From assembly GCA_041170435.1 (NCBI GenBank), contig JBEAYU010000045.1:7975-71974 (forward strand): DNA of 64,000 nt, in the 5' to 3' direction. This DNA comes from Bacteroidota bacterium (lineage in GTDB: Bacteria > Bacteroidota > Ignavibacteria > Kapaibacteriales > Kapaibacteriaceae). Within the stretch, counting starts at the first letter, position 1. Every line of letters begins with the position of its first letter. A program made the translations under genes and the position numbers. This document shows positions 2-13,011 of the stretch, one piece after another. The notes beneath the pieces were generated by a model. It made no database searches, was not told the DNA's origin, and was given only the letters and a program-made list of their open reading frames with translations.

Positions 2-2578
2 CCGAAGGGACGTGTTGAACATCCCATCGTACGATTCTTGCGACAGTTCCATGCGCCCCTTGTCTATATCCTGATCGCCAGTGGCGTAGTGACGGCGATC
101 ATTGGAGGCATCACCGATACCTCCGTGATCTTTGGCGTGGTGCTGCTCAACGCAATCATCGGATTCGTGCAGGAGGGCAAGGCCATCTCGTCGTTGGCGC
201 GTCTGGCCAACTCTGTGGTAGGAACTGCCACGGTCGTGCGAGGGGGCGTGCGCATGCGCCTGCCGATGGAGGAGCTCGTACCGGGCGACCTCATCGTGCT
301 GGAAAGTGGCGATCGAGTGCCGGCGGATCTGCGCCTGGTGTGGGTGAAGGACCTGGCCATTGCCGAGTCAGCCCTGACCGGTGAAAGCGTCCCATCAGAG
401 AAGCAGTCGTCACCCGTTGATGCGGCGAGCGTACTTGCCGACCGTGCTTCGATGGCCTATGCCTCAACAGTGGTTACACGCGGCGCGGGAATGGGGCTGG
501 TGGTGTCCACGGGAAAGTCCACAGAGGTCGGCACGATCTCAACCTTGCTCAACGAAGCCCCCTCACTACAGACGCCGCTGACGCAGCAGATCGCACGATT
601 CAGCAATGTGCTGTTGGTGGCGATCCTGCTGCTTGCCGCCGGCACCTTTGCCGTGGGGGTCATGCGTGGCGAACGTCCGGTGGACATGGTCATGGCTGCT
701 GTTGCCCTGTCCGTTGGGGCAATTCCCGAGGGACTTCCCGCTGCGGTCACCATCATTCTGGCCATCGGCGTCAACCGCATGGCGCGTCGCAGAGCCATCG
801 TACGAAGTCTTCCGGTTGTGGAGACGCTTGGTTCGACCACGGTGATCTGCAGTGACAAGACGGGCACGCTGACGGAGAATCAGATGACCGTGGTAGCCAT
901 CACCACGGCATCGGCAGAGTACATCGTGCAGGGGACGGGATACCGACCTGAGGGAGACATCCTACGTCGAAGCAGCGCTGATGCATCTTCTCCCGTGCAC
1001 GTGGGGCATGATGTTGCGCTGCATGAGACGCTGCGCGCCGGCGTGCTGTGTTCCACAGCATCGGTCCGCCAAGTTGATGGCTATTGGCAGGCCTTGGGAG
1101 ACCCCACCGAAGCAGCCCTCGTGGTTGCCGGGATGAAGGCAGGGCTTCATCGTGACGTCGAGCAGGAGCTCATGCCGTTGGCCGACGTTGTGCCGTTCTC
1201 GAGCGATGCGCAGTACATGGCCACACTTCATCACACGCAACCATCGGGTTCGCGCATCTACATGAAGGGGGCTTTGGAGGCGCTGTTGCCTCGATGCACG
1301 AAGATGCTCACGCGGTCCGGATCCCATGAGCCCCTTGACATGCAGTCCATCACGGGTCACGTCGAAACCATGAGTGCCGAGGGCTTGCGCGTGCTGGCCT
1401 GTGCCATGAAGGACGTGGATGGACGCCTTGAGGAGATCACGTCCGACGTCCTGTCGGGTGACTTTGTACTGACGGGTATCGTGGGGATGGTCGATCCGCC
1501 TCGCCCCGAGGTACGCGCATCCATTGCCGAGTGTCATCGCGCCGGTGTGGGCGTGAAGATGATCACGGGAGATCATGCCATCACTGCCGTTGCCATTGCT
1601 CGTGATCTTGGCATCGTCGAAGTAAGTGGCCATCCCCGCGAATACGTCAAGACAGGACGTGATCTCGAACAGCTCAGTGACGAGCAGTTGGAAGATGCAG
1701 CCGAGCGCTACTCCGTCTTTGCGCGTGTGACGGCCGAGCAGAAGCTGCGTCTTGTACATGCACTTCAGCGAAGGGGGCATGTGGTTGCCATGACGGGTGA
1801 CGGAGTCAATGACGCTCCGGCACTTCGCACTGCAAACGTGGGCATTGCCATGGGGGGCACGGGCACGGACGTTGCCAAGGATGCGTCGGACATCGTGCTG
1901 ACGGATGACAACTTCACCACCATCGTTGCGGCGGTTGAGGAAGGTCGGACGGTGTTCGAAAACCTCATGAAGTTTATCGTGTGGACCATTCCAACCAATG
2001 CTGCCGAGGGCTTGGTGATCCTTGTGGCGGTGGCCCTGGGCGTTGCTTTGCCGATCCTTCCCATCCACATCTTGTGGATCAATATGACCACGGCGGTGAT
2101 CCTTGGGTTGCCACTGGCCTTTGAGCCAACGCCCCATGATGTGATGGAGCGACGTCCACGTCGCATGAGTGATCCGTTGTTTTCGCGGGACATTCTCATG
2201 CGGACCGGACTTGTCGTGCTGCTGATGCTTTCGTCCGGCTTCGGCATCTACTTCTGGGAGCTCAGTTCGGGAAGCACCCTTGTCGAAGCCCAGACCGCAG
2301 CCGCTGCCGTCTTCGTGGTCATTCAGACGTTCTACCTTTTCAACTGCCGCACGCTTGTGGGCCCGGCCAGACATCCGATCACGTCCAACATGACCGTGAT
2401 CTACGGTGCGGCTCTCATGGCCGTGCTTCAGCTGGCCTTCACATACGTGCCGTTCTTCAACGATGTGTTCCGCACCGCCCCCTTACCGCTCACCTCATGG
2501 ATGTACATCCTTGCCTGCGGCCTGGCCTCGTATGTGATCGTTTCGATCGAGAAGACGGTGAGGTGGCGATATAGCTAA
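2..2578 (+). CDS. P-type cation-transporting ATPase (type II, Ca2+/Mg2+-like); 5' end lies outside the window
   Basis: The frame is open from the window edge; the listed M at 38 is an internal TTG within PKGRVEHPIVRFLRQFHAPL. Motifs present: TGES, phosphorylation site CSDKTGTLT, hinge MTGDGVNDAPAL. Multiple TM helices. Confidence 0.9.
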   Translation, partial: PKGRVEHPIVRFLRQFHAPLVYILIASGVVTAIIGGITDTSVIFGVVLLNAIIGFVQEGKAISSLARLANSVVGTATVVRGGVRMRLPMEELVPGDLIVLESGDRVPADLRLVWVKDLAIAESALTGESVPSEKQSSPVDAASVLADRASMAYASTVVTRGAGMGLVVSTGKSTEVGTISTLLNEAPSLQTPLTQQIARFSNVLLVAILLLAAGTFAVGVMRGERPVDMVMAAVALSVGAIPEGLPAAVTIILAIGVNRMARRRAIVRSLPVVETLGSTTVICSDKTGTLTENQMTVVAITTASAEYIVQGTGYRPEGDILRRSSADASSPVHVGHDVALHETLRAGVLCSTASVRQVDGYWQALGDPTEAALVVAGMKAGLHRDVEQELMPLADVVPFSSDAQYMATLHHTQPSGSRIYMKGALEALLPRCTKMLTRSGSHEPLDMQSITGHVETMSAEGLRVLACAMKDVDGRLEEITSDVLSGDFVLTGIVGMVDPPRPEVRASIAECHRAGVGVKMITGDHAITAVAIARDLGIVEVSGHPREYVKTGRDLEQLSDEQLEDAAERYSVFARVTAEQKLRLVHALQRRGHVVAMTGDGVNDAPALRTANVGIAMGGTGTDVAKDASDIVLTDDNFTTIVAAVEEGRTVFENLMKFIVWTIPTNAAEGLVILVAVALGVALPILPIHILWINMTTAVILGLPLAFEPTPHDVMERRPRRMSDPLFSRDILMRTGLVVLLMLSSGFGIYFWELSSGSTLVEAQTAAAAVFVVIQTFYLFNCRTLVGPARHPITSNMTVIYGAALMAVLQLAFTYVPFFNDVFRTAPLPLTSWMYILACGLASYVIVSIEKTVRWRYS

Positions 2579-2638: not shown

Positions 2639-2911
2639 ATGATAGTGATCAATATGCACGAAGCAAAGACCACATTGTCGCAGCTTGTTGAGATGGCCTT
2701 GCACGGGGAAACAGTCATCATTGCGCGACGCGGCGTGCCCGCGGTTCGCTTGGAGCCAGTATCTGATAGCGATTCACAGCGCCCTATCGGGCTTGGTGCT
2801 TCCATATCAGCAGCTGGCGATACCGGTCACGAACTACTGTCGGCCACGAATCCTGATGTGTATCAGGAAAGCACGACCGATCCACTTGACCGGCCTCGCC
2901 GCAAGGCATGA
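2639..2911 (+). CDS. Type II antitoxin, Phd/YefM-like
   Basis: N-terminus MIVINMHEAKTTLSQLVEMALHGETVIIARRGVPAVRLEPV is typical of prevent-host-death antitoxins. AGGAG lies 7-8 nt upstream. 4-nt ATGA overlap with the downstream PIN gene. Confidence 0.75.
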   Translation: MIVINMHEAKTTLSQLVEMALHGETVIIARRGVPAVRLEPVSDSDSQRPIGLGASISAAGDTGHELLSATNPDVYQESTTDPLDRPRRKA

Positions 2912-3303
2912 GTATGCGCATTCTGCTCGACACGCATGCTCTACTCTGGTACGATGCCGAACCGGACAGGCTCAGTGCGATCAGTCGCGAGATAATCCAA
3001 CAGAGAGACACGATCGTCCTCTGTTCCGCGGCATCGATCTATGAGCTATGGCAGAAGGCCATGAAACCGAAATCGCCAATCCGACCTGAACATGTCGAGT
3101 CAGTGCTTCGGCATATTCCCGTGTATGGCTTTACACTCCTTCCGATCGAAGTCAACCATGCAGCAGATGCGGCAGTTCTCAAATGGTCAAATCGTGACCC
3201 CTTTGATCGAATCATCGCAGCCCAAGCGATCGCCGAGAATTGTGCCATCATCACGTGCGATTCGGCATTCAAGAGCCTGAAGCAGGTGGAGATACTCTGG
3301 TGA
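2908..3303 (+). CDS. vapC: Type II toxin, VapC family (PIN domain)
   Basis: ILLDTHALLWY N-terminal acidic PIN signature, about 130 aa, overlaps the antitoxin stop. Its TGA stop lies inside the first heptamer of the downstream repeat array. Confidence 0.8.
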   Translation: MSMRILLDTHALLWYDAEPDRLSAISREIIQQRDTIVLCSAASIYELWQKAMKPKSPIRPEHVESVLRHIPVYGFTLLPIEVNHAADAAVLKWSNRDPFDRIIAAQAIAENCAIITCDSAFKSLKQVEILW

Positions 3304-3339: not shown

Positions 3340-3351
3340 AGGCGTGCAATC

Positions 3352-3776
3352 GTCATTCCCGCGAAAGCGGGAATCCATACATTATAGTAGGGGCGAGACG
3401 CAGTCTCGGCCGATGGTTTGCGCACAACGCCTGACGCGTCATGCTGCATAATTGCCCAGGGCTTTAGCCCTGGGAAAATAGGGGAGCCCCCTTCTACTAA
3501 TCATTTTCAAATCAATTCGATTCTATCTCTTATCCCAGGGCTTCAGCCATGGGAAAATAGAGCAAGAATGATTTGTTTGTGCTGGAATTGAAAGGGGGCT
3601 TGCCCCTCTTTCCCATGGCTGAAGCCATGGGAAGTTATGCGTTAAGATGGATCCCGGCCTGCGCCGGGATGACGGGGGTGCGCGATGAAGATGGATCCCG
3701 GCCTGCGCCGGGATGATGGTGATGGGTGCGGCCGAGAACAATGATGAATGCGGGCGAGACTGCGTCTCGCCCCTAC
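3352..3776. repeat. Repeat cluster A: at least 8 REP-like hairpin elements of several related families
   Basis: Hairpins read directly:
- 3352-3378: gtcattCCCGCGaaagCGCGGGaat-type (attcccgc gaaa gcgggaat)
- 3387-3411 and 3752-3776: GTAG-ggggcgagac...gtctcgcccc-CTAC
- 3455-3474, 3534-3553 and 3612-3631: cccaKggc-loop-gccMtggg
- 3647-3673 and 3691-3717: atggatCCCGGCctgcGCCGGGatga
No credible ORF. Confidence 0.9.
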
Positions 3777-4159
3777 TCCGACTCCGCCGTTGTTTCGTTC
3801 GCTTCATCCTCTGCGAATACGGAATCCAGATCGAAGCCCAGATTGCTCATCATACCTGGATGATGAAGTGGGTTGCGGCATCTTGATCGGTGAACGAGCC
3901 CGTGGAATCGGCTCCCATCATCGGCCTTGATGGCTGTGACGTATTCACAGCCTTCGACGATGAGGATCTTCTCGAAATCGGCTTCTACTCGAAGTTGGCC
4001 TAACTCCTGGGTAGTCCCGTTGTTCTTCTCGTCGGTAGCGTCCGACTTATCCAAAATGCTGATCAAAAGGATAACAATGAGGAATGCTGTGGCTCCAAGA
4101 AAGGAACCAGCAAAGCTCCAGAGTATAATTCTATTGCGTGCACGAAAGCGTCCGGTCAT
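3773..4159 (-). CDS. Hypothetical small membrane-anchored protein
   Basis: 128-aa ORF with one N-terminal TM helix (ILWSFAGSFLGATAFLIVILLISIL). No recognisable domain. Its 3' end abuts the GTAG hairpin at 3752-3776. Confidence 0.35.
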   Translation of the reverse strand: MTGRFRARNRIILWSFAGSFLGATAFLIVILLISILDKSDATDEKNNGTTQELGQLRVEADFEKILIVEGCEYVTAIKADDGSRFHGLVHRSRCRNPLHHPGMMSNLGFDLDSVFAEDEANETTAESE

Positions 4160-7679: not shown

Positions 7680-7862
7680 GAAATCATGCTAGTACAGCCG
7701 CGCATTTGCGGTCGAACATCGTGATGGCAGATCAATGTGCAATCGTATTAGCATACATATCACATTTCTTACAAATGGGGTATCTGATAGCTTGCAATCC
7801 ACACAACAAGTAGGGTGTGAGAGTAATACGCTGACTAAAAACCAACACAAGGACGGAAACAT

Positions 7863-9656
7863 ATGAATCGTCGTGTACAGTTGTTGCAACTAGGTAGTAT
7901 CATCTTACTCGTTGTGTTCTTTTGTGTGACAGCAGTATCGCTATCAGCTCGCGAATCAGATGTCGCCTCGAGGTATTGCATCGTGATGCCAACTAAAGAA
8001 CAGCACGTCTTCTCTGGGCTGAAGCGTGTAGTTGTGCCATTTACGGTTGTTAACGACGACGACGAGTTTCTTCGAAACGTCAAGGTTCATGTTGAGCCAA
8101 CTATTGCTACAGCAACCGTACACGCCCTTGAATCACATAGCCCCCTTGAAGGCGAGAGTCTGCAAATCCGAAGATATGAGGTGTGGATAGAGGGCGCTAT
8201 TGCTTTGAGTGATACATCAACTGACTACAGGCTCGCGATCACAGGCGTCAACGGAACGACATCACCTTGCACTGATACTGATAACACGCATTTGGTGAGA
8301 GTGTATCCGGCAGAGCTGAAAAACCGGTCAGTCATAGAAGCGATACTGGCCCGTATGGTGTACATAGGACGTCCATTAAGGCTAAGGCCAGAGCCGAATG
8401 CGAGAATGATCATCCCGTGGAGTCAATTCGAAGGAACATTCATTCTGCATTCCAAAGACAGCATCAGCGTGCTAACACAGCAGGGTTTGACTCCCACAGT
8501 CCCCTGCATCTCCTCCAACATCGATAGTGTCAACTTCAAAACGGAATGGATCTATGCTCCTGATCATACATCCTATGTTGAGAAGTTGCTACTGTTTCAA
8601 CAAACGAGTTCCGAGGCTAGACAGCAATCTCCGGATGTTATATCAGCCAATACTTCGCACTTCTGGGATTCTCGACGACACCGACTCATACTGTCGGGAA
8701 TCATAGTTAATCCTCCACGAAGAGACTGTGGAATCACCGCAGATGAAAAGGACTTGCTTTTGGAAGTCCAGACAGATTGGTATAGTGGTAACGGCTTTCG
8801 TTTGTTGGCAACACTCGAAAGAGAAGGCGAGCTGACCTATAGAGTAGTGCTAAATGTTCTGCCGGATTCGGCAACTATGGCGCTAGCAAACAGAAAGCAC
8901 ATAAAGTATCGAGGTGCAGATGTTGCCGTTACCTTGACGTGCACGTACAATGGCGCCTCAGAAACTGAGCAGATAAGAGGAATAGTGCCTGAATTCGCCG
9001 TCGAGTCTATTGACAGAGACCGGGAGTCAGGGAGCTGGAGAGCGCGTCTGCAAAAACAATTCAATCTGCCTAATGGCGATATATCTGTGTACCGCATGTC
9101 TCAGCAGTCAAATGACAGCCTGAACGCGTTGCTTCATCCGAGGCCAACTCTAAAACCAGCAATAATCAATGCTGTGTCGAAACTGTTGGGATCCAATGTA
9201 GTCGGATCACCCGAGTACCAGGAGATCGGTTACATCCTTAGTCGTGGTGTTACGTCCATTCAAAAAGTGATTGACAAAATGGACGAGGAAGGTGTGTTTG
9301 ACGAAAGCGTCTTAAAGTCGAAAGAGTTCGCAGATTTTGTTGGTTACATGATTGATGATCATCTATATAAGTCGAGAGAGTGGGCGCGAGAGTCGTATAT
9401 CATCGTGAATCAGAAACGAAAGTCATCGGGCAAGAACGAAGAGTCTATCGTAGGACTGTTCAGTGCATATCAAACGACAACATTGCCTAATGCATTCTAC
9501 GTGTCAGACATCAAGCGCTGCATTATTAACGCCAGCACGTTGGATCTCCTCGACGGAACGAAGATTAACCCTAACACAAAAACGCTGAAGCAGTATCTCG
9601 CAAGACTGATTGAGAGTGGATCAGCTGTCGATGTGACCGCAGAGGCGAAGCAGTAG
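7863..9656 (+). CDS. Hypothetical exported protein (597 aa), no recognisable domain
   Basis: Long ORF with an N-terminal hydrophobic signal/anchor (LGSIILLVVFFCVTAVSLSA). Lower-GC codon usage. Divergent from the kinase across a 183-bp spacer. Confidence 0.7.
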   Translation: MNRRVQLLQLGSIILLVVFFCVTAVSLSARESDVASRYCIVMPTKEQHVFSGLKRVVVPFTVVNDDDEFLRNVKVHVEPTIATATVHALESHSPLEGESLQIRRYEVWIEGAIALSDTSTDYRLAITGVNGTTSPCTDTDNTHLVRVYPAELKNRSVIEAILARMVYIGRPLRLRPEPNARMIIPWSQFEGTFILHSKDSISVLTQQGLTPTVPCISSNIDSVNFKTEWIYAPDHTSYVEKLLLFQQTSSEARQQSPDVISANTSHFWDSRRHRLILSGIIVNPPRRDCGITADEKDLLLEVQTDWYSGNGFRLLATLEREGELTYRVVLNVLPDSATMALANRKHIKYRGADVAVTLTCTYNGASETEQIRGIVPEFAVESIDRDRESGSWRARLQKQFNLPNGDISVYRMSQQSNDSLNALLHPRPTLKPAIINAVSKLLGSNVVGSPEYQEIGYILSRGVTSIQKVIDKMDEEGVFDESVLKSKEFADFVGYMIDDHLYKSREWARESYIIVNQKRKSSGKNEESIVGLFSAYQTTTLPNAFYVSDIKRCIINASTLDLLDGTKINPNTKTLKQYLARLIESGSAVDVTAEAKQ

Positions 9657-9739
9657 GTTGAACACTCAGCATTTGCAAGAATGATTGCGTACTCCGGCAA
9701 AAAACACCCTCATTTCAATTGTATCAAAGGAGCTTCACT

Positions 9740-9910
9740 ATGCCACCATGCGTTGAATGTCATTACCCGTATGCCACATCGTCGAAGTGCAAGAATTGCG
9801 GGTGCACAAATCCGATGGGCAAGGAGGAAAAAGAAGGATGTCTAAGTACAATTCTTGGATGGCTGTTTGCTGCTGCAATCGTGTACGGTGTCATTAGGTA
9901 CTTTAGTTAG
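9740..9910 (+). CDS. Small zinc-ribbon protein with C-terminal TM helix
   Basis: MPPCVECHYPYATSSKCKNCGC gives a CxxC...CxxC pattern, followed by a TM helix (ILGWLFAAAIVYGVI). AAGGAG lies 7 nt upstream of the ATG at 9740. The listed TTG start at 9719 is less likely. Confidence 0.55.
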   Translation: MPPCVECHYPYATSSKCKNCGCTNPMGKEEKEGCLSTILGWLFAAAIVYGVIRYFS

Positions 9911-10103
9911 AATAGTCGTCAGTCTGATACTGCGCGTGTTCGATGCTTCGGCTAATGATCAATCAGTTAACGTGCTAGTGTCGAATGATATGCCGATCGC
10001 ATGTCGCATTAGAGAATGAAAACAAGCAGCCTCGCAAAGCAATACTGAACAGAAAATCAACCAAACATCAACCGTAACTTAACACTTGTTAGAGGAGTGA
10101 AAA

Positions 10104-10544
10104 ATGAAGTCATACAACCTGACCTGGACAGCAACCGTGGTTTGTGCGTTTATGCTATTCATGACATCTCATATGCTAGCTCAGAGCGTGCGCGTTAAGA
10201 ATCGTAATGGTGAAGCTGTTGTGTATGTCGACGGTTCTACGCTTCGCGAACGAAATCGTAACGGGGAAGCTTTGTACTATCTCGATGGTCAAACTATCCG
10301 ACAACGCAATCGAAATGGCGAGGCAGTGTATTACATCGACGGTAACGTCGTGAAAGAACGAAACCGTAATGGTCAAGCGCTGTTTTACTTTGACGAAATG
10401 ACGATTAGGACGCAATCCAGAAACGGAGAAGCACTTTACTTTATTGATGGCAATACATTGCGCTATAAGAATCGAAACGGAGAAGCTGCCTACTACTTTG
10501 ATGGGCTGCCAGAAAAGTGGGTTATAGCATGCCTTATGCGCTGA
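10104..10544 (+). CDS. Secreted protein made of six 18-residue tandem repeats (RNRNGEALYYxDGxTxRx)
   Basis: Signal peptide ending MLAQS. Six NG-EA-YY-DG repeats. The DNA copies have diverged mostly at synonymous sites. GGAG lies upstream of the ATG. Confidence 0.75.
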   Translation: MKSYNLTWTATVVCAFMLFMTSHMLAQSVRVKNRNGEAVVYVDGSTLRERNRNGEALYYLDGQTIRQRNRNGEAVYYIDGNVVKERNRNGQALFYFDEMTIRTQSRNGEALYFIDGNTLRYKNRNGEAAYYFDGLPEKWVIACLMR

Positions 10545-10598
10545 TATTGCCTAGATTCTTTTAGAGGGCATAGTTGCAACCTTCCTATCAAAGTCATC

Positions 10599-11297
10599 AT
10601 GAAAGCACTGTCGGCACATCGACCGATTCATAAGATTGAAGCAACATTCTCCAGGGTAAGGCCGTCTCATGCAAAGAGACACGCCATTTTCGCGAATCGT
10701 TCGCAGTCAATACATAACTTTATCCTCAAGGCTATCATAAAAACGACGCAATTGGTAAGAAGTATTCATCTTGTAGTTGTCTTGGTGCTGTTCGTGATCA
10801 TTGTCATCGATTATCCAGCACTAGCGTTCGCCGGAAGAGACACGATCGAAGTGTCATACGCGAAGACGCCTGATATCTCTGTCGCTGGTGTCTATATGGA
10901 CGTGACACAGAAGATAGCTTTCGACGAACATCGCCAAATCTCTTTTCTTAAGACAAACGATCTGGCATTGTACAAGAAGTTCAAGGATGCTATCGATACC
11001 GTGGCGTTGCGGCGCACCGACCCCAATGAGATTGTCGCAATAGTGCGTAGGCACGGAGGCTCGCCCTACGAATTGCAGTACGTGAGGCTTGCATTGACTA
11101 TCATGACAGACAGGTTAGAGCGATTCAGGACGCCGTACAGAGTTAAAATGGTAATTGATGAGCATGGATTCCTTGAGCACCTCGAATGCAGAGGATTTAT
11201 GCTTCTTTCAGATGGATTCGTTCTGAAGAAGCCCTTCCTAGATCTATACAAAGTGCATCGGTCCCACCTCGAAAAGTTCGAGCCTGTCGAGCGGTAG
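10599..11297 (+). CDS. Hypothetical membrane-anchored protein (232 aa)
   Basis: ORF with one TM helix (IHLVVVLVLFVIIVIDYPALAFA). No recognisable domain. Start codon uncertain. Confidence 0.5.
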   Translation: MKALSAHRPIHKIEATFSRVRPSHAKRHAIFANRSQSIHNFILKAIIKTTQLVRSIHLVVVLVLFVIIVIDYPALAFAGRDTIEVSYAKTPDISVAGVYMDVTQKIAFDEHRQISFLKTNDLALYKKFKDAIDTVALRRTDPNEIVAIVRRHGGSPYELQYVRLALTIMTDRLERFRTPYRVKMVIDEHGFLEHLECRGFMLLSDGFVLKKPFLDLYKVHRSHLEKFEPVER

Positions 11298-11393
11298 ATC
11301 TATCTTCCCGTATTGTACGTCACCCTAGCAGAAGCCAATAGCACAGCTTTGCACAGTGCTTTATCGAGGCCAACCGAATTGATGTTCGCCGGG

Positions 11394-11636
11394 CGTCATC
11401 CCGAGGAGGCCCGAACCGAAACCCAGAGCGAAGCGAAAGGGCAGTGAGGGGCGACGAGGGACCTCGCGATGAAGATGGATCCCGGCCTGCGCCGGGATGA
11501 CGGGGGTGCGCGATGAAGATGGATCCCGGCTTGCCCCCTCATTCCCATGGCTGAAGCCATGGGCAATTGTGCATTGAGATGGATCCCGGCCTGCGCCCTC
11601 GCTTCGCTCGGCGCTTCGGCCTAGGGATGATGGAGA
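11394..11636. repeat. Repeat cluster B: nested MITE-like palindromic composite
   Basis: The outer imperfect inverted arms are tcatcccgaggaggcccgaa...gagcgaagcgaaagggc (11394-11444) and gccctcgcttcgctc...ttcggcctagggatga (11592-11636). They enclose atggatcccggcctgcgccgggatgac (11475-11501), truncated copies at 11518-11530 and 11578-11600, and cccatggctgaagccatggg (11544-11563). Confidence 0.85.
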
Positions 11637-11640
11637 GTCA

Positions 11641-12300: not shown

Positions 12301-13011
12301 CTATTCCGACTCGTATGCTCGCTTGCGGGCAAGACGCGCCTGACGTCGGCGGGGAAAGTCGTTGTCACGCATGCGACGCTGGAGGATGATCAGCACCTCC
12401 GTCAGTGACCGATACGTGTGGTGCGGGATGCCCTCCTCCGTGCACGATGCCGCAAGCGTCCCCTTGGCAAACACCACGTCAGCATAGCGCACCGCACAGG
12501 CGTCCGACAAGCCATCGCCCACGTAGATCACCACGTCATCGTCGCCGATCGCCGACAAGATCACGTTGCGCTTGCAGGAAGCACAAAAGCACGAGCAGGA
12601 TTCGCTCGCACCAGGAAATGCCGGCTTCCACGAGCCCCCTTCATACGAAAGCGTATTGCTCGCAATGGGGATTGCAGCGTCGCCAAGTTCACGTTTGAGC
12701 AGGGGGCGGATATAGACGTCGAACCCGTCGCTGACCACGGTGGCGGGGATGTTGTTCTCTCGACTCCATGCGAGTAAAGGGGCGAGTCCGGCATCGATTT
12801 CCTGACGCTGGACAAACTCTTCCATGGCTTCGGGAGTTGCCTCGGGACGGAAGCTGCCGATGGCGCGGCGGTAGTACTCGGCAACGGTGAATTCTCCGGC
12901 CAAGAGTTCGTCGTGCAAGATGTCGAATGACCCGAACGTGCCGACGAGTTTATCGCCAACATCTCCGATGCTGATCGTTCCGTCGAAGTCGAGAAACAGG
13001 TGCAGACGCAT
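12301..13011 (-). CDS. HAD-IB family phosphatase (MtnX / phosphoserine-phosphatase-like)
   Basis: The N-terminal motif FLDFDGTIS carries the nucleophile DxD. Also present: a Cys cluster (CSCFCASCKRN) and a C-terminal YVGDGLSD motif. Confidence 0.75.
   Translation of the reverse strand: MRLHLFLDFDGTISIGDVGDKLVGTFGSFDILHDELLAGEFTVAEYYRRAIGSFRPEATPEAMEEFVQRQEIDAGLAPLLAWSRENNIPATVVSDGFDVYIRPLLKRELGDAAIPIASNTLSYEGGSWKPAFPGASESCSCFCASCKRNVILSAIGDDDVVIYVGDGLSDACAVRYADVVFAKGTLAASCTEEGIPHHTYRSLTEVLIILQRRMRDNDFPRRRQARLARKRAYESE

Follow-up and report, generated by a model that had tools for sequence, protein, structure and literature searches.

A 64,000-nt stretch of a Kapaibacteriaceae genome (Bacteroidota bacterium, assembly GCA_041170435.1, contig JBEAYU010000045.1), called the window here and used for all position numbers, contains an island of ~7.8 kb on which four consecutive genes for envelope-located proteins (genes 1 to 4) stand divergent from a histidine kinase and a response regulator. 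The four genes are the mosaic cargo of a species-specific island and not a conserved four-gene unit. Sequence homology indicates that gene 1 descends from a core envelope operon, termed A-B-C-D here, and joins in one chain the C-terminal region of A and the N-terminal domain of B; genes 3 and 4 appear to constitute a second pair, a secreted beta-flower protein and an exported partner. This anatomy and evolutionary origin are held with high confidence. The best overall explanation, given moderate confidence, is that of island cargo in which gene 1 would act in the periplasm, under regulation, as an accessory to the core A-B machine.

Insertion of a species-specific island

The island is recognized by its composition and by comparison with sister species. 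GC content falls from 0.56-0.61 outside to 0.44-0.51 from ~4 to ~11 kb of the window, and the GC content at third codon positions (GC3) of the seven island genes is 0.46-0.57 versus 0.71-0.77 in the flanking core genes, in a genome of 56.7% GC. The insertion site lies between a vapBC-type toxin-antitoxin pair and a conserved 199-aa gene, and the distance from the flanking cation ATPase gene to the HAD-type gene is 9.7 kb here versus 0.7-2.6 kb in most sister species. In one of these (G015), DNA comparison shows window position 3260 joined to 11636 with 137 nt between, whereas in another (G001) the site is occupied by ~1.1 kb of sequence resembling repetitive extragenic palindromic (REP) elements, in which the two bounding repeat clusters are fused and no island cargo is present. 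The vapBC pair is found in both of these and in the closest species (G003); G004 has neither vapBC nor REPs at the site. At the same place, G003 carries other low-GC cargo with three exported orphans of 216, 409, and 227 aa. The region is a true insertion of the kinase, the regulator, a 128-aa membrane protein, and the four cargo genes, and its site gathers different exported orphans in different species. A preliminary description of the window, made from the sequence alone, had proposed a foreign, low-GC origin for this DNA; the GC3 contrast bears this out, and the comparison with sister species establishes the insertion itself.

The direct repeats that bound the island are members of a REP-like family with tens of partial copies over 29 contigs of the genome, and the hairpin cores of their clusters, CCATGGCTGAAGCCATGG and CCCGGCCTGCGCCGGG, have 18 and 16 genomic copies, respectively. 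No recombinase (integrase or transposase) Pfam match was obtained among the island ORFs (open reading frames) scanned, and there is no tRNA at the site. In G003 (C6:19500-27800, L096), the 216-, 409-, and 227-aa ORFs with signal peptides follow vapBC, and to the left of vapBC there is another low-GC block, with ORFs of 240 and 478 aa on the minus strand.

The same island is present in two more assemblies at 100% (L114) and 99.98% (L116) identity, and a fragment of it in a third at 98.3% (L115). By its own account, the preliminary description would fail if the four genes never co-occurred with each other or with the kinase-regulator pair in other genomes, and this has partly come true: the four occur together only in near-identical assemblies of one population, and the kinase homologues found elsewhere face other genes; genes 3 and 4 are the sole pair of the four to recur together elsewhere. 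All four plus-strand ORFs that it had picked out are real genes, judging from homologues and a structural model for gene 1, synonymous changes for gene 2, Pfam for gene 3, and a homologue of 48% identity for gene 4, and all four products are, as it had supposed, envelope-located.

Gene 1 and the core envelope operon A-B-C-D

Gene 1 has no match in Pfam, NCBIfam, PADLOC, or PHROGs; sequence and profile searches of the PDB are empty, and a word-index search of 5.8 billion proteins returns gene 1 itself alone. When 1.84 billion representative proteins were searched exhaustively with HMMER, only six relatives emerged, and a six-frame search finds matches of 25-36% identity in 25 of 60 related genomes. 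A paralogue is also encoded in the genome of the window, on contig C81 (tblastn E 2e-50), which carries this genome's copy of A-B-C-D (L009:4997-11671). The 721-aa product of A consists of a transmembrane (TM) helix, a long helical region, and a beta-rich region, and its last ~340 residues match gene 1. B encodes 572 aa with a signal peptide; the first ~200 residues match gene 1, and the rest, by eye, looks like an outer-membrane barrel. C encodes 491 aa, and D combines vWA and OmpA domains. The N-terminal TM segment of A, MSKGGAGKVYFVLYLAVILELLIIIVERDEAEEHL, is identical across the A-type sequences read. In all, 264 loci with the operon were identified in genomes of Kapabacteria, Ignavibacteria, and Chlorobiota, and in the four loci inspected, as well as in the own-genome copy, a class II ribonucleotide reductase gene lies directly upstream of it. 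In every case, A and B are distinct genes, the stop of A following IPEFR. None of A, B, and C belongs to a Pfam family, and no published description of the operon was found.

The homology of gene 1 extends over both sides of the A-B gene boundary. Residues 38-381 of gene 1 correspond to the C-terminal region of A (~340 aa, ending in IPEFR), with which gene 1 shares 27-36% identity at E-values down to 2.7e-54, and its residues 390-578 match the start of B in the six-frame search (E 1e-6 to 1e-3). Here, residues 390-597 of gene 1 and the B N-terminal domain have the IPEF, G-D-I-S-V-Y/F, and terminal EAQ motifs in common. In the single chain of gene 1, VPEF is followed by a short linker and the B-type domain, which ends in DVTAEAKQ, aligned to NVTxEAQGI at the end of the aligned B segment. 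Gene 1 begins with a signal peptide unrelated to the N-terminus of A and passes directly into its immunoglobulin (Ig)-like region, so that the TM helix MSKGGAGKVYFVLYLAVILELLIIIVERDEAEEHL and the long helical region of A are missing, as are the signal peptide and the barrel part of B. Given its homology to the A C-terminus and the B N-terminus, gene 1 is not an orphan, and the earlier designation of the four genes as an orphan cluster has to be given up, with gene 1 a diverged paralogue of core envelope genes and gene 3 a member of a catalogued family. Programmed read-through joining A and B was considered and rejected, as the stop always follows IPEFR and the frame relation of A and B varies among genomes.

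Among the six relatives of gene 1, the short fused build recurs only in P0003 (465 aa) and P0005 (614 aa), each with its own signal peptide, and they keep it at 26-28% identity; the other four are three A-type proteins and one C-terminal fragment of a near-identical strain. Gene finders differ in the start of gene 1: in one assembly the call is 597 aa long, whereas in another it has 556 aa and leaves out the signal peptide. The 597-aa start is favored because both P0003 and P0005 possess N-terminal hydrophobic segments. In a maximum-likelihood tree, the three fused proteins group as a single clade (support 99/99) within the A proteins of the Kapaibacteriaceae, with terminal branches of 0.6-1.2 versus a median of 0.07. 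Across the 51 species of the family, no further genome carries a fused short-type gene, and a profile search of metagenome contigs with the short-type alignment gave no match. The sequences thus compared point to a single origin of gene 1 inside the Kapaibacteriaceae from the core operon, followed by an apparent divergence ~10 times faster than that of A.

The structure of gene 1 was predicted with AlphaFold from an 89-row alignment that included read-through bridging rows, giving a mean pLDDT (predicted local distance difference test) of 85.5 and a pTM (predicted template modeling score) of 0.60. The model comprises a helix at residues 3-22, an all-beta region at 38-381, and an alpha/beta region at 392-597. 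The all-beta region is predicted to form three Ig-like domains, and in Foldseek searches against the PDB it matches tandem Ig, cadherin, and fibronectin ectodomains (E ~1e-7). The C-terminal domain modeled alone reaches a pLDDT of 82.4, and Foldseek retrieves nothing significant for it in the PDB or among viral models; its second-ranked match, the folded domain of PorN (7pvh; E 0.18, TM-score 0.30), is not significant.

Genes 3 and 4, a beta-flower protein and a probably exported partner

The preliminary description found no recognizable domain in any of the four genes. This does not hold for gene 3, which matches Pfam PF21786 over residues 35-125 with 39.8 bits (cut-off 34; E 4.9e-10). PF21786 is Bflower_3, a family of clan CL0395, which also holds the Tubby C-terminal domain. 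Each of the six units of gene 3 has an NRNG turn (SRNG in unit 5), the second turn reads DE in unit 4 and DG in the other five, and the DNA repeats are spaced at 54 nt. Precomputed tables also list PF21786 for the two best homologues, and a C-terminal end of the form GLPEKWV[IL]ACL is common to gene 3, the homologues P0009-P0012, and the metagenomic contig L109, the homologues being 40-55% identical. These features assign gene 3 to the six-fold beta-flower proteins, a known family of which it is a new, secreted member. The six-fold beta-flower family was defined from AlphaFold models in 2023, with a semi-conserved [DNEQ]xxG turn and, in some members, an export signal (Durairaj et al., Nature 2023, PMC10584680). 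Gene 3 was found in none of the 60 relatives, and no viral contig has the beta-flower C-terminal motif. Other beta-flower homologues mostly occur alone and in unrelated contexts. One of them, P0009 (47% identity to gene 3; L103:4103-7657), is encoded near genes of phospholipid synthesis (CTP_transf_1/CdsA and phosphatidylserine decarboxylase), which is notable in view of the clan link to the lipid-binding Tubby domains but may be a coincidence.

The start of gene 4 is called differently by gene finders, at 232, 189, and 170 aa. In another sample, a 95% identical protein has its start at the place of residue 44, with a typical signal peptide ending LAFA-GRD, which suggests export. Gene 4 is therefore probably an exported domain of ~155 aa and not the single-pass membrane protein that it had been taken for. 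A degenerate-pattern scan for the beta-flower C-terminal motif recovered three overlapping metagenomic contigs (L109, L110, and L112; GC 46-49%) that encode a 181-aa homologue of gene 4 (48% identity, E 2e-51) with the invariant motifs kept. This homologue lies 1.9 kb upstream of a beta-flower gene (55% identity to gene 3) of the same orientation, and the genes that separate and follow the two are unrelated. The composite of the three contigs reads gene-4 homologue, 610 aa (no family), beta-flower, 366 aa (a sub-cut-off Arm-DNA-binding match), and 147 aa (a weak PHROG endonuclease match), and may represent another mobile or accessory region with the beta-flower/gene-4 pair. Gene 4 was found in none of the 60 relatives and in none of 400 genomes of the phylum. 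It thus appears to constitute a small new family genetically linked to a subgroup of PF21786, a partner that is not described in the beta-flower paper (PMC10584680).

Gene 2 and the integrity of the cargo genes

Gene 2 has no Pfam or NCBIfam family match. Its ATG at 9740 is preceded by AAAGGAG at 7 nt, and it is called by gene finders in two other assemblies. Compared with L115, the 98.3% identical contig, all six differences within gene 2 are synonymous third-position changes, for which the probability by chance is estimated at ~3e-4 with about a quarter of random changes taken as synonymous; the 193-nt spacer after gene 2 has five changes, and the 83-nt spacer before it has none. The six synonymous changes argue that gene 2 is protein-coding and under purifying selection, and its sequence suggests a small tail-anchored zinc-ribbon protein.

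These observations bear on the view that the cargo has no function, gene 1 being the degenerating remains of an A-B duplicate from which both ends were lost, and the small ORFs being junk that hitch-hiked along. The very long branches and atypical composition of gene 1, the extreme rarity of the genes in databases, and the ambiguous start of gene 4 would fit such a history, but the 597-codon frame of gene 1 is intact, its fused build is kept in two distant homologues, and AlphaFold is confident over both of its domains. The purifying selection on gene 2, the conservation of the gene-4 domain with its invariant motifs, and the retention of six repeats and the terminal helix in gene 3 likewise speak against decay, which makes this view highly improbable.

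Table 1. Features of the island and its flanks, in window coordinates
Feature	Position	Strand	Description
Cation ATPase	38-2578		Left flanking core gene
vapBC-type toxin-antitoxin pair	2639-3303		PhdYeFM/PIN; directly left of REP cluster and island
Left 66-nt REP-type direct repeat	3644..3709		97% identity to 11472-11537; inside REP cluster 3350-3780
128-aa single-TM protein	3773..4159	-	80 nt downstream of regulator; GC3 0.57; gene call in independent assembly
NarL/FixJ-type response regulator, 211 aa	4240..4875	-	Response_reg 5e-19, GerE 1e-14 (Pfam)
Sensor histidine kinase, 915 aa	4932..7679	-	Signal/TM, periplasmic Reg_prop propellers and Y_Y_Y, second TM, HisKA_3, HATPase_c
Divergent intergenic region	7680..7862		183 nt; presumed promoters
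Gene 1, 597 aa	7863..9656	+	Predicted signal peptide/anchor 3-22; Ig-like 38-381 (nt 7974-9005); alpha/beta 392-597 (nt 9036-9653)
Gene 2, 56 aa	9740..9910	+	CxxC...CxxC zinc-ribbon-like N-terminus; C-terminal TM helix
Gene 3, 146 aa	10104..10544	+	Signal peptide; six 18-residue hairpin repeats; C-terminal hydrophobic helix PEKWVIACLMR
Gene 4, 232-aa ORF	10599..11297	+	Uncertain basic N-terminal extension; hydrophobic segment ending LAFA-GRD; ~155-aa domain (YLEHLECRGF, DGFVL); alternative TTG start 10752
Right 66-nt direct repeat	11472..11537		Inside REP cluster 11350-11640
HAD-type protein	12301-13011		Right flanking core gene

The two-component system and its relation to the cargo

As the preliminary description had it, the four genes run divergently from those of the kinase and regulator, with 183 nt in between; the kinase is a periplasm-sensing protein of the Reg_prop/HisKA_3 type, and the regulator is of the NarL type. 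The kinase has an H-box-like RIARDLHDDVG and is unique of its type in the genome. Homologues exist in two of the 18 sister species searched, at 45-48% identity in G005 and 34-37% in G010, so that the system is present in three of the 19 genus genomes searched and is an accessory borne by the island. The 128-aa protein encoded downstream of the regulator matches no family in Pfam, NCBIfam, or PADLOC.

Control of the four divergent genes by this two-component system is what we infer from adjacency. Scans for sigma-70 promoters and terminators performed at or below chance and gave nothing in the 7680-7862 spacer, and the same is true of the Bacteroidota -7 motif TAnnTTTG, with no match there. A 10-mer, ATGTGATATG, is common to window positions 7776-7785 and the kinase-upstream spacer of G005 (L101, C160, 3393-3402); with ~0.07 such matches expected by chance, it is a weak, borderline candidate for a regulator site.

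The first reading of the locus went further and regarded the four genes as one coherent operon, a surface, adhesion, or envelope module forming the dedicated regulon of the adjacent two-component system. Consistent with this, the genes lie on one strand with gaps of 83, 193, and 54 nt and no terminator-like plus-strand site between them, diverge from the kinase across a short spacer, encode envelope-located products throughout, and are carried on one island that is identical or nearly so in L114 and L116; the recurrence of genes 3 and 4 together also agrees with it. However, the set of four does not recur beyond near-identical strains, P0005, the 30% identical homologue of gene 1, is followed by a convergent gene, the beta-flower homologues mostly stand alone, and the homologues of the kinase face a peptidase-like operon or another gene. 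A single functional unit is thus unlikely.

A possible working of the island

For island cargo with gene 1 as an accessory of the core machine, the following mechanism may be imagined, albeit tentatively and at a rather low probability. The propeller kinase would sense a periplasmic or envelope cue, and the NarL-type regulator would switch on the divergent genes. The gene-1 product would stay in the periplasm. Given that gene 1 retains exactly the part of A and the part of B that adjoin at the gene boundary, it is logical to speculate that it binds partners of that junction and thereby caps or remodels the core trans-envelope complex or competes with it. The beta-flower and gene-4 proteins would function apart from it, as an exported pair that might bind lipid or other envelope components, a guess drawn from the clan relation of the beta-flower to Tubby.

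Several points weigh against the accessory reading of gene 1 and its evolutionary premise. That the gene-1 product binds the A-B-C-D complex is no more than an inference. The spacer 7680-7862, where the preliminary description had suggested looking for a LuxR-type site, contains no repeat of at least 8 nt, inverted or direct, and thus no operator-like motif. The kinase homologues face an S41-peptidase-like operon in G005 and another gene in G010; with such unrelated neighbors, the kinase shows no conserved association with the cargo. The half of the island with the two-component system (~51% GC) differs slightly in composition from the cargo half (~46-47% GC), and the two may have arrived separately. 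As to the tree, the long branches of the fused proteins could reflect relaxed constraint and not adaptive change, and long-branch attraction could inflate the support for their clade; this warning applies, yet the common architecture is independent support for one clade.

In its most far-reaching form, the proposal takes gene-1-type proteins as regulated, fast-evolving soluble mimics of the A-B periplasmic joint, which would act as a switchable cap or decoy, and takes the fusion as a Rosetta stone for a docking of A, through its tip, on the B N-terminal domain, with the beta-flower and gene-4 proteins as a second exported pair. The proposal in this form is improbable. If it were true, the cap or decoy would switch the machine off in response to a periplasmic signal or shield it from the phages or effectors that exploit it.

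A related idea assigns the cargo to defense or competition, gene 1 being a secreted decoy of the exposed A-B junction against phages, tailocins, or effectors and the beta-flower pair a further defense gene set. The hypervariable site beside vapBC, the other exported orphans that a sister species keeps there, and the rapid evolution of gene 1 relative to its parent agree with this idea. On the other hand, PADLOC assigns none of the five island proteins tested to a family, PHROG matches are weak, the phage genome collection gives no match, and the beta-flower C-terminal motif is missing from viral contigs; to our knowledge, no phage of these uncultured bacteria uses A-B. The probability of a defensive role is accordingly put low.

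Gene 1 belongs to a three-member family without description, and its interest lies mainly in what it says about the core A-B system. As a rare natural fusion, it constitutes direct genomic evidence for an interaction of the A tip with the B N-terminal domain in a conserved trans-envelope system of Kapabacteria, Ignavibacteria, and Chlorobi. It is also a soluble construct with a confident model and no membrane parts, usable for studying the A-B system. The pairing of beta-flower and gene 4, in turn, offers a first neighborhood clue for the PF21786 subgroup.

Comparison with known systems

The island is a typical flexible-island insertion, and the cluster is ordinary accessory cargo. With flexible genomic islands, which are repeat-flanked recombination hot spots, it shares empty or alternative sites, atypical composition, repeats at the edges, and an adjoining toxin-antitoxin pair. 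It differs from them in having no integrase, transposase, or tRNA and in that its repeats are genome-wide and REP-like and not specific att sites.

By its domains, the two-component system appears to be of a common type, the HisKA_3/NarL class. It shares Reg_prop, Y_Y_Y, HisKA_3, and HATPase_c with the periplasmic propeller sensor kinases of Bacteroidota, and its regulator combines a receiver (REC) domain with GerE. It is a classical two-protein system, in contrast to hybrid two-component systems (HTCS), in which kinase and regulator are one protein. Gene 3 agrees with the six-fold beta-flower family in score, in its six units with N-x-x-G and D-G turns, and in the export signal, but differs in its link to the small exported family of gene 4. 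Its C-terminal hydrophobic helix is conserved among the closest homologues; in the family fold, a 12-stranded barrel would enclose such a helix.

A and B invite comparison with the PorM (GldM) and PorN (GldN) components of the type IX secretion system (T9SS) and gliding machinery. PorM has an inner-membrane anchor, a helical segment, and periplasmic Ig-like domains, and its tip meets periplasmic PorN near the outer membrane. The likeness seems to be architectural only: gene 1, A, and B have no GldM or GldN match in Pfam or NCBIfam, GldM_1st (PF12081) has no match in the genome, and a profile of A finds nothing in the PDB. Relative to the A-B-C-D operon itself, gene 1 is one chain and not two, is followed by neither C nor D, and resides on an accessory island instead of beside the reductase gene.

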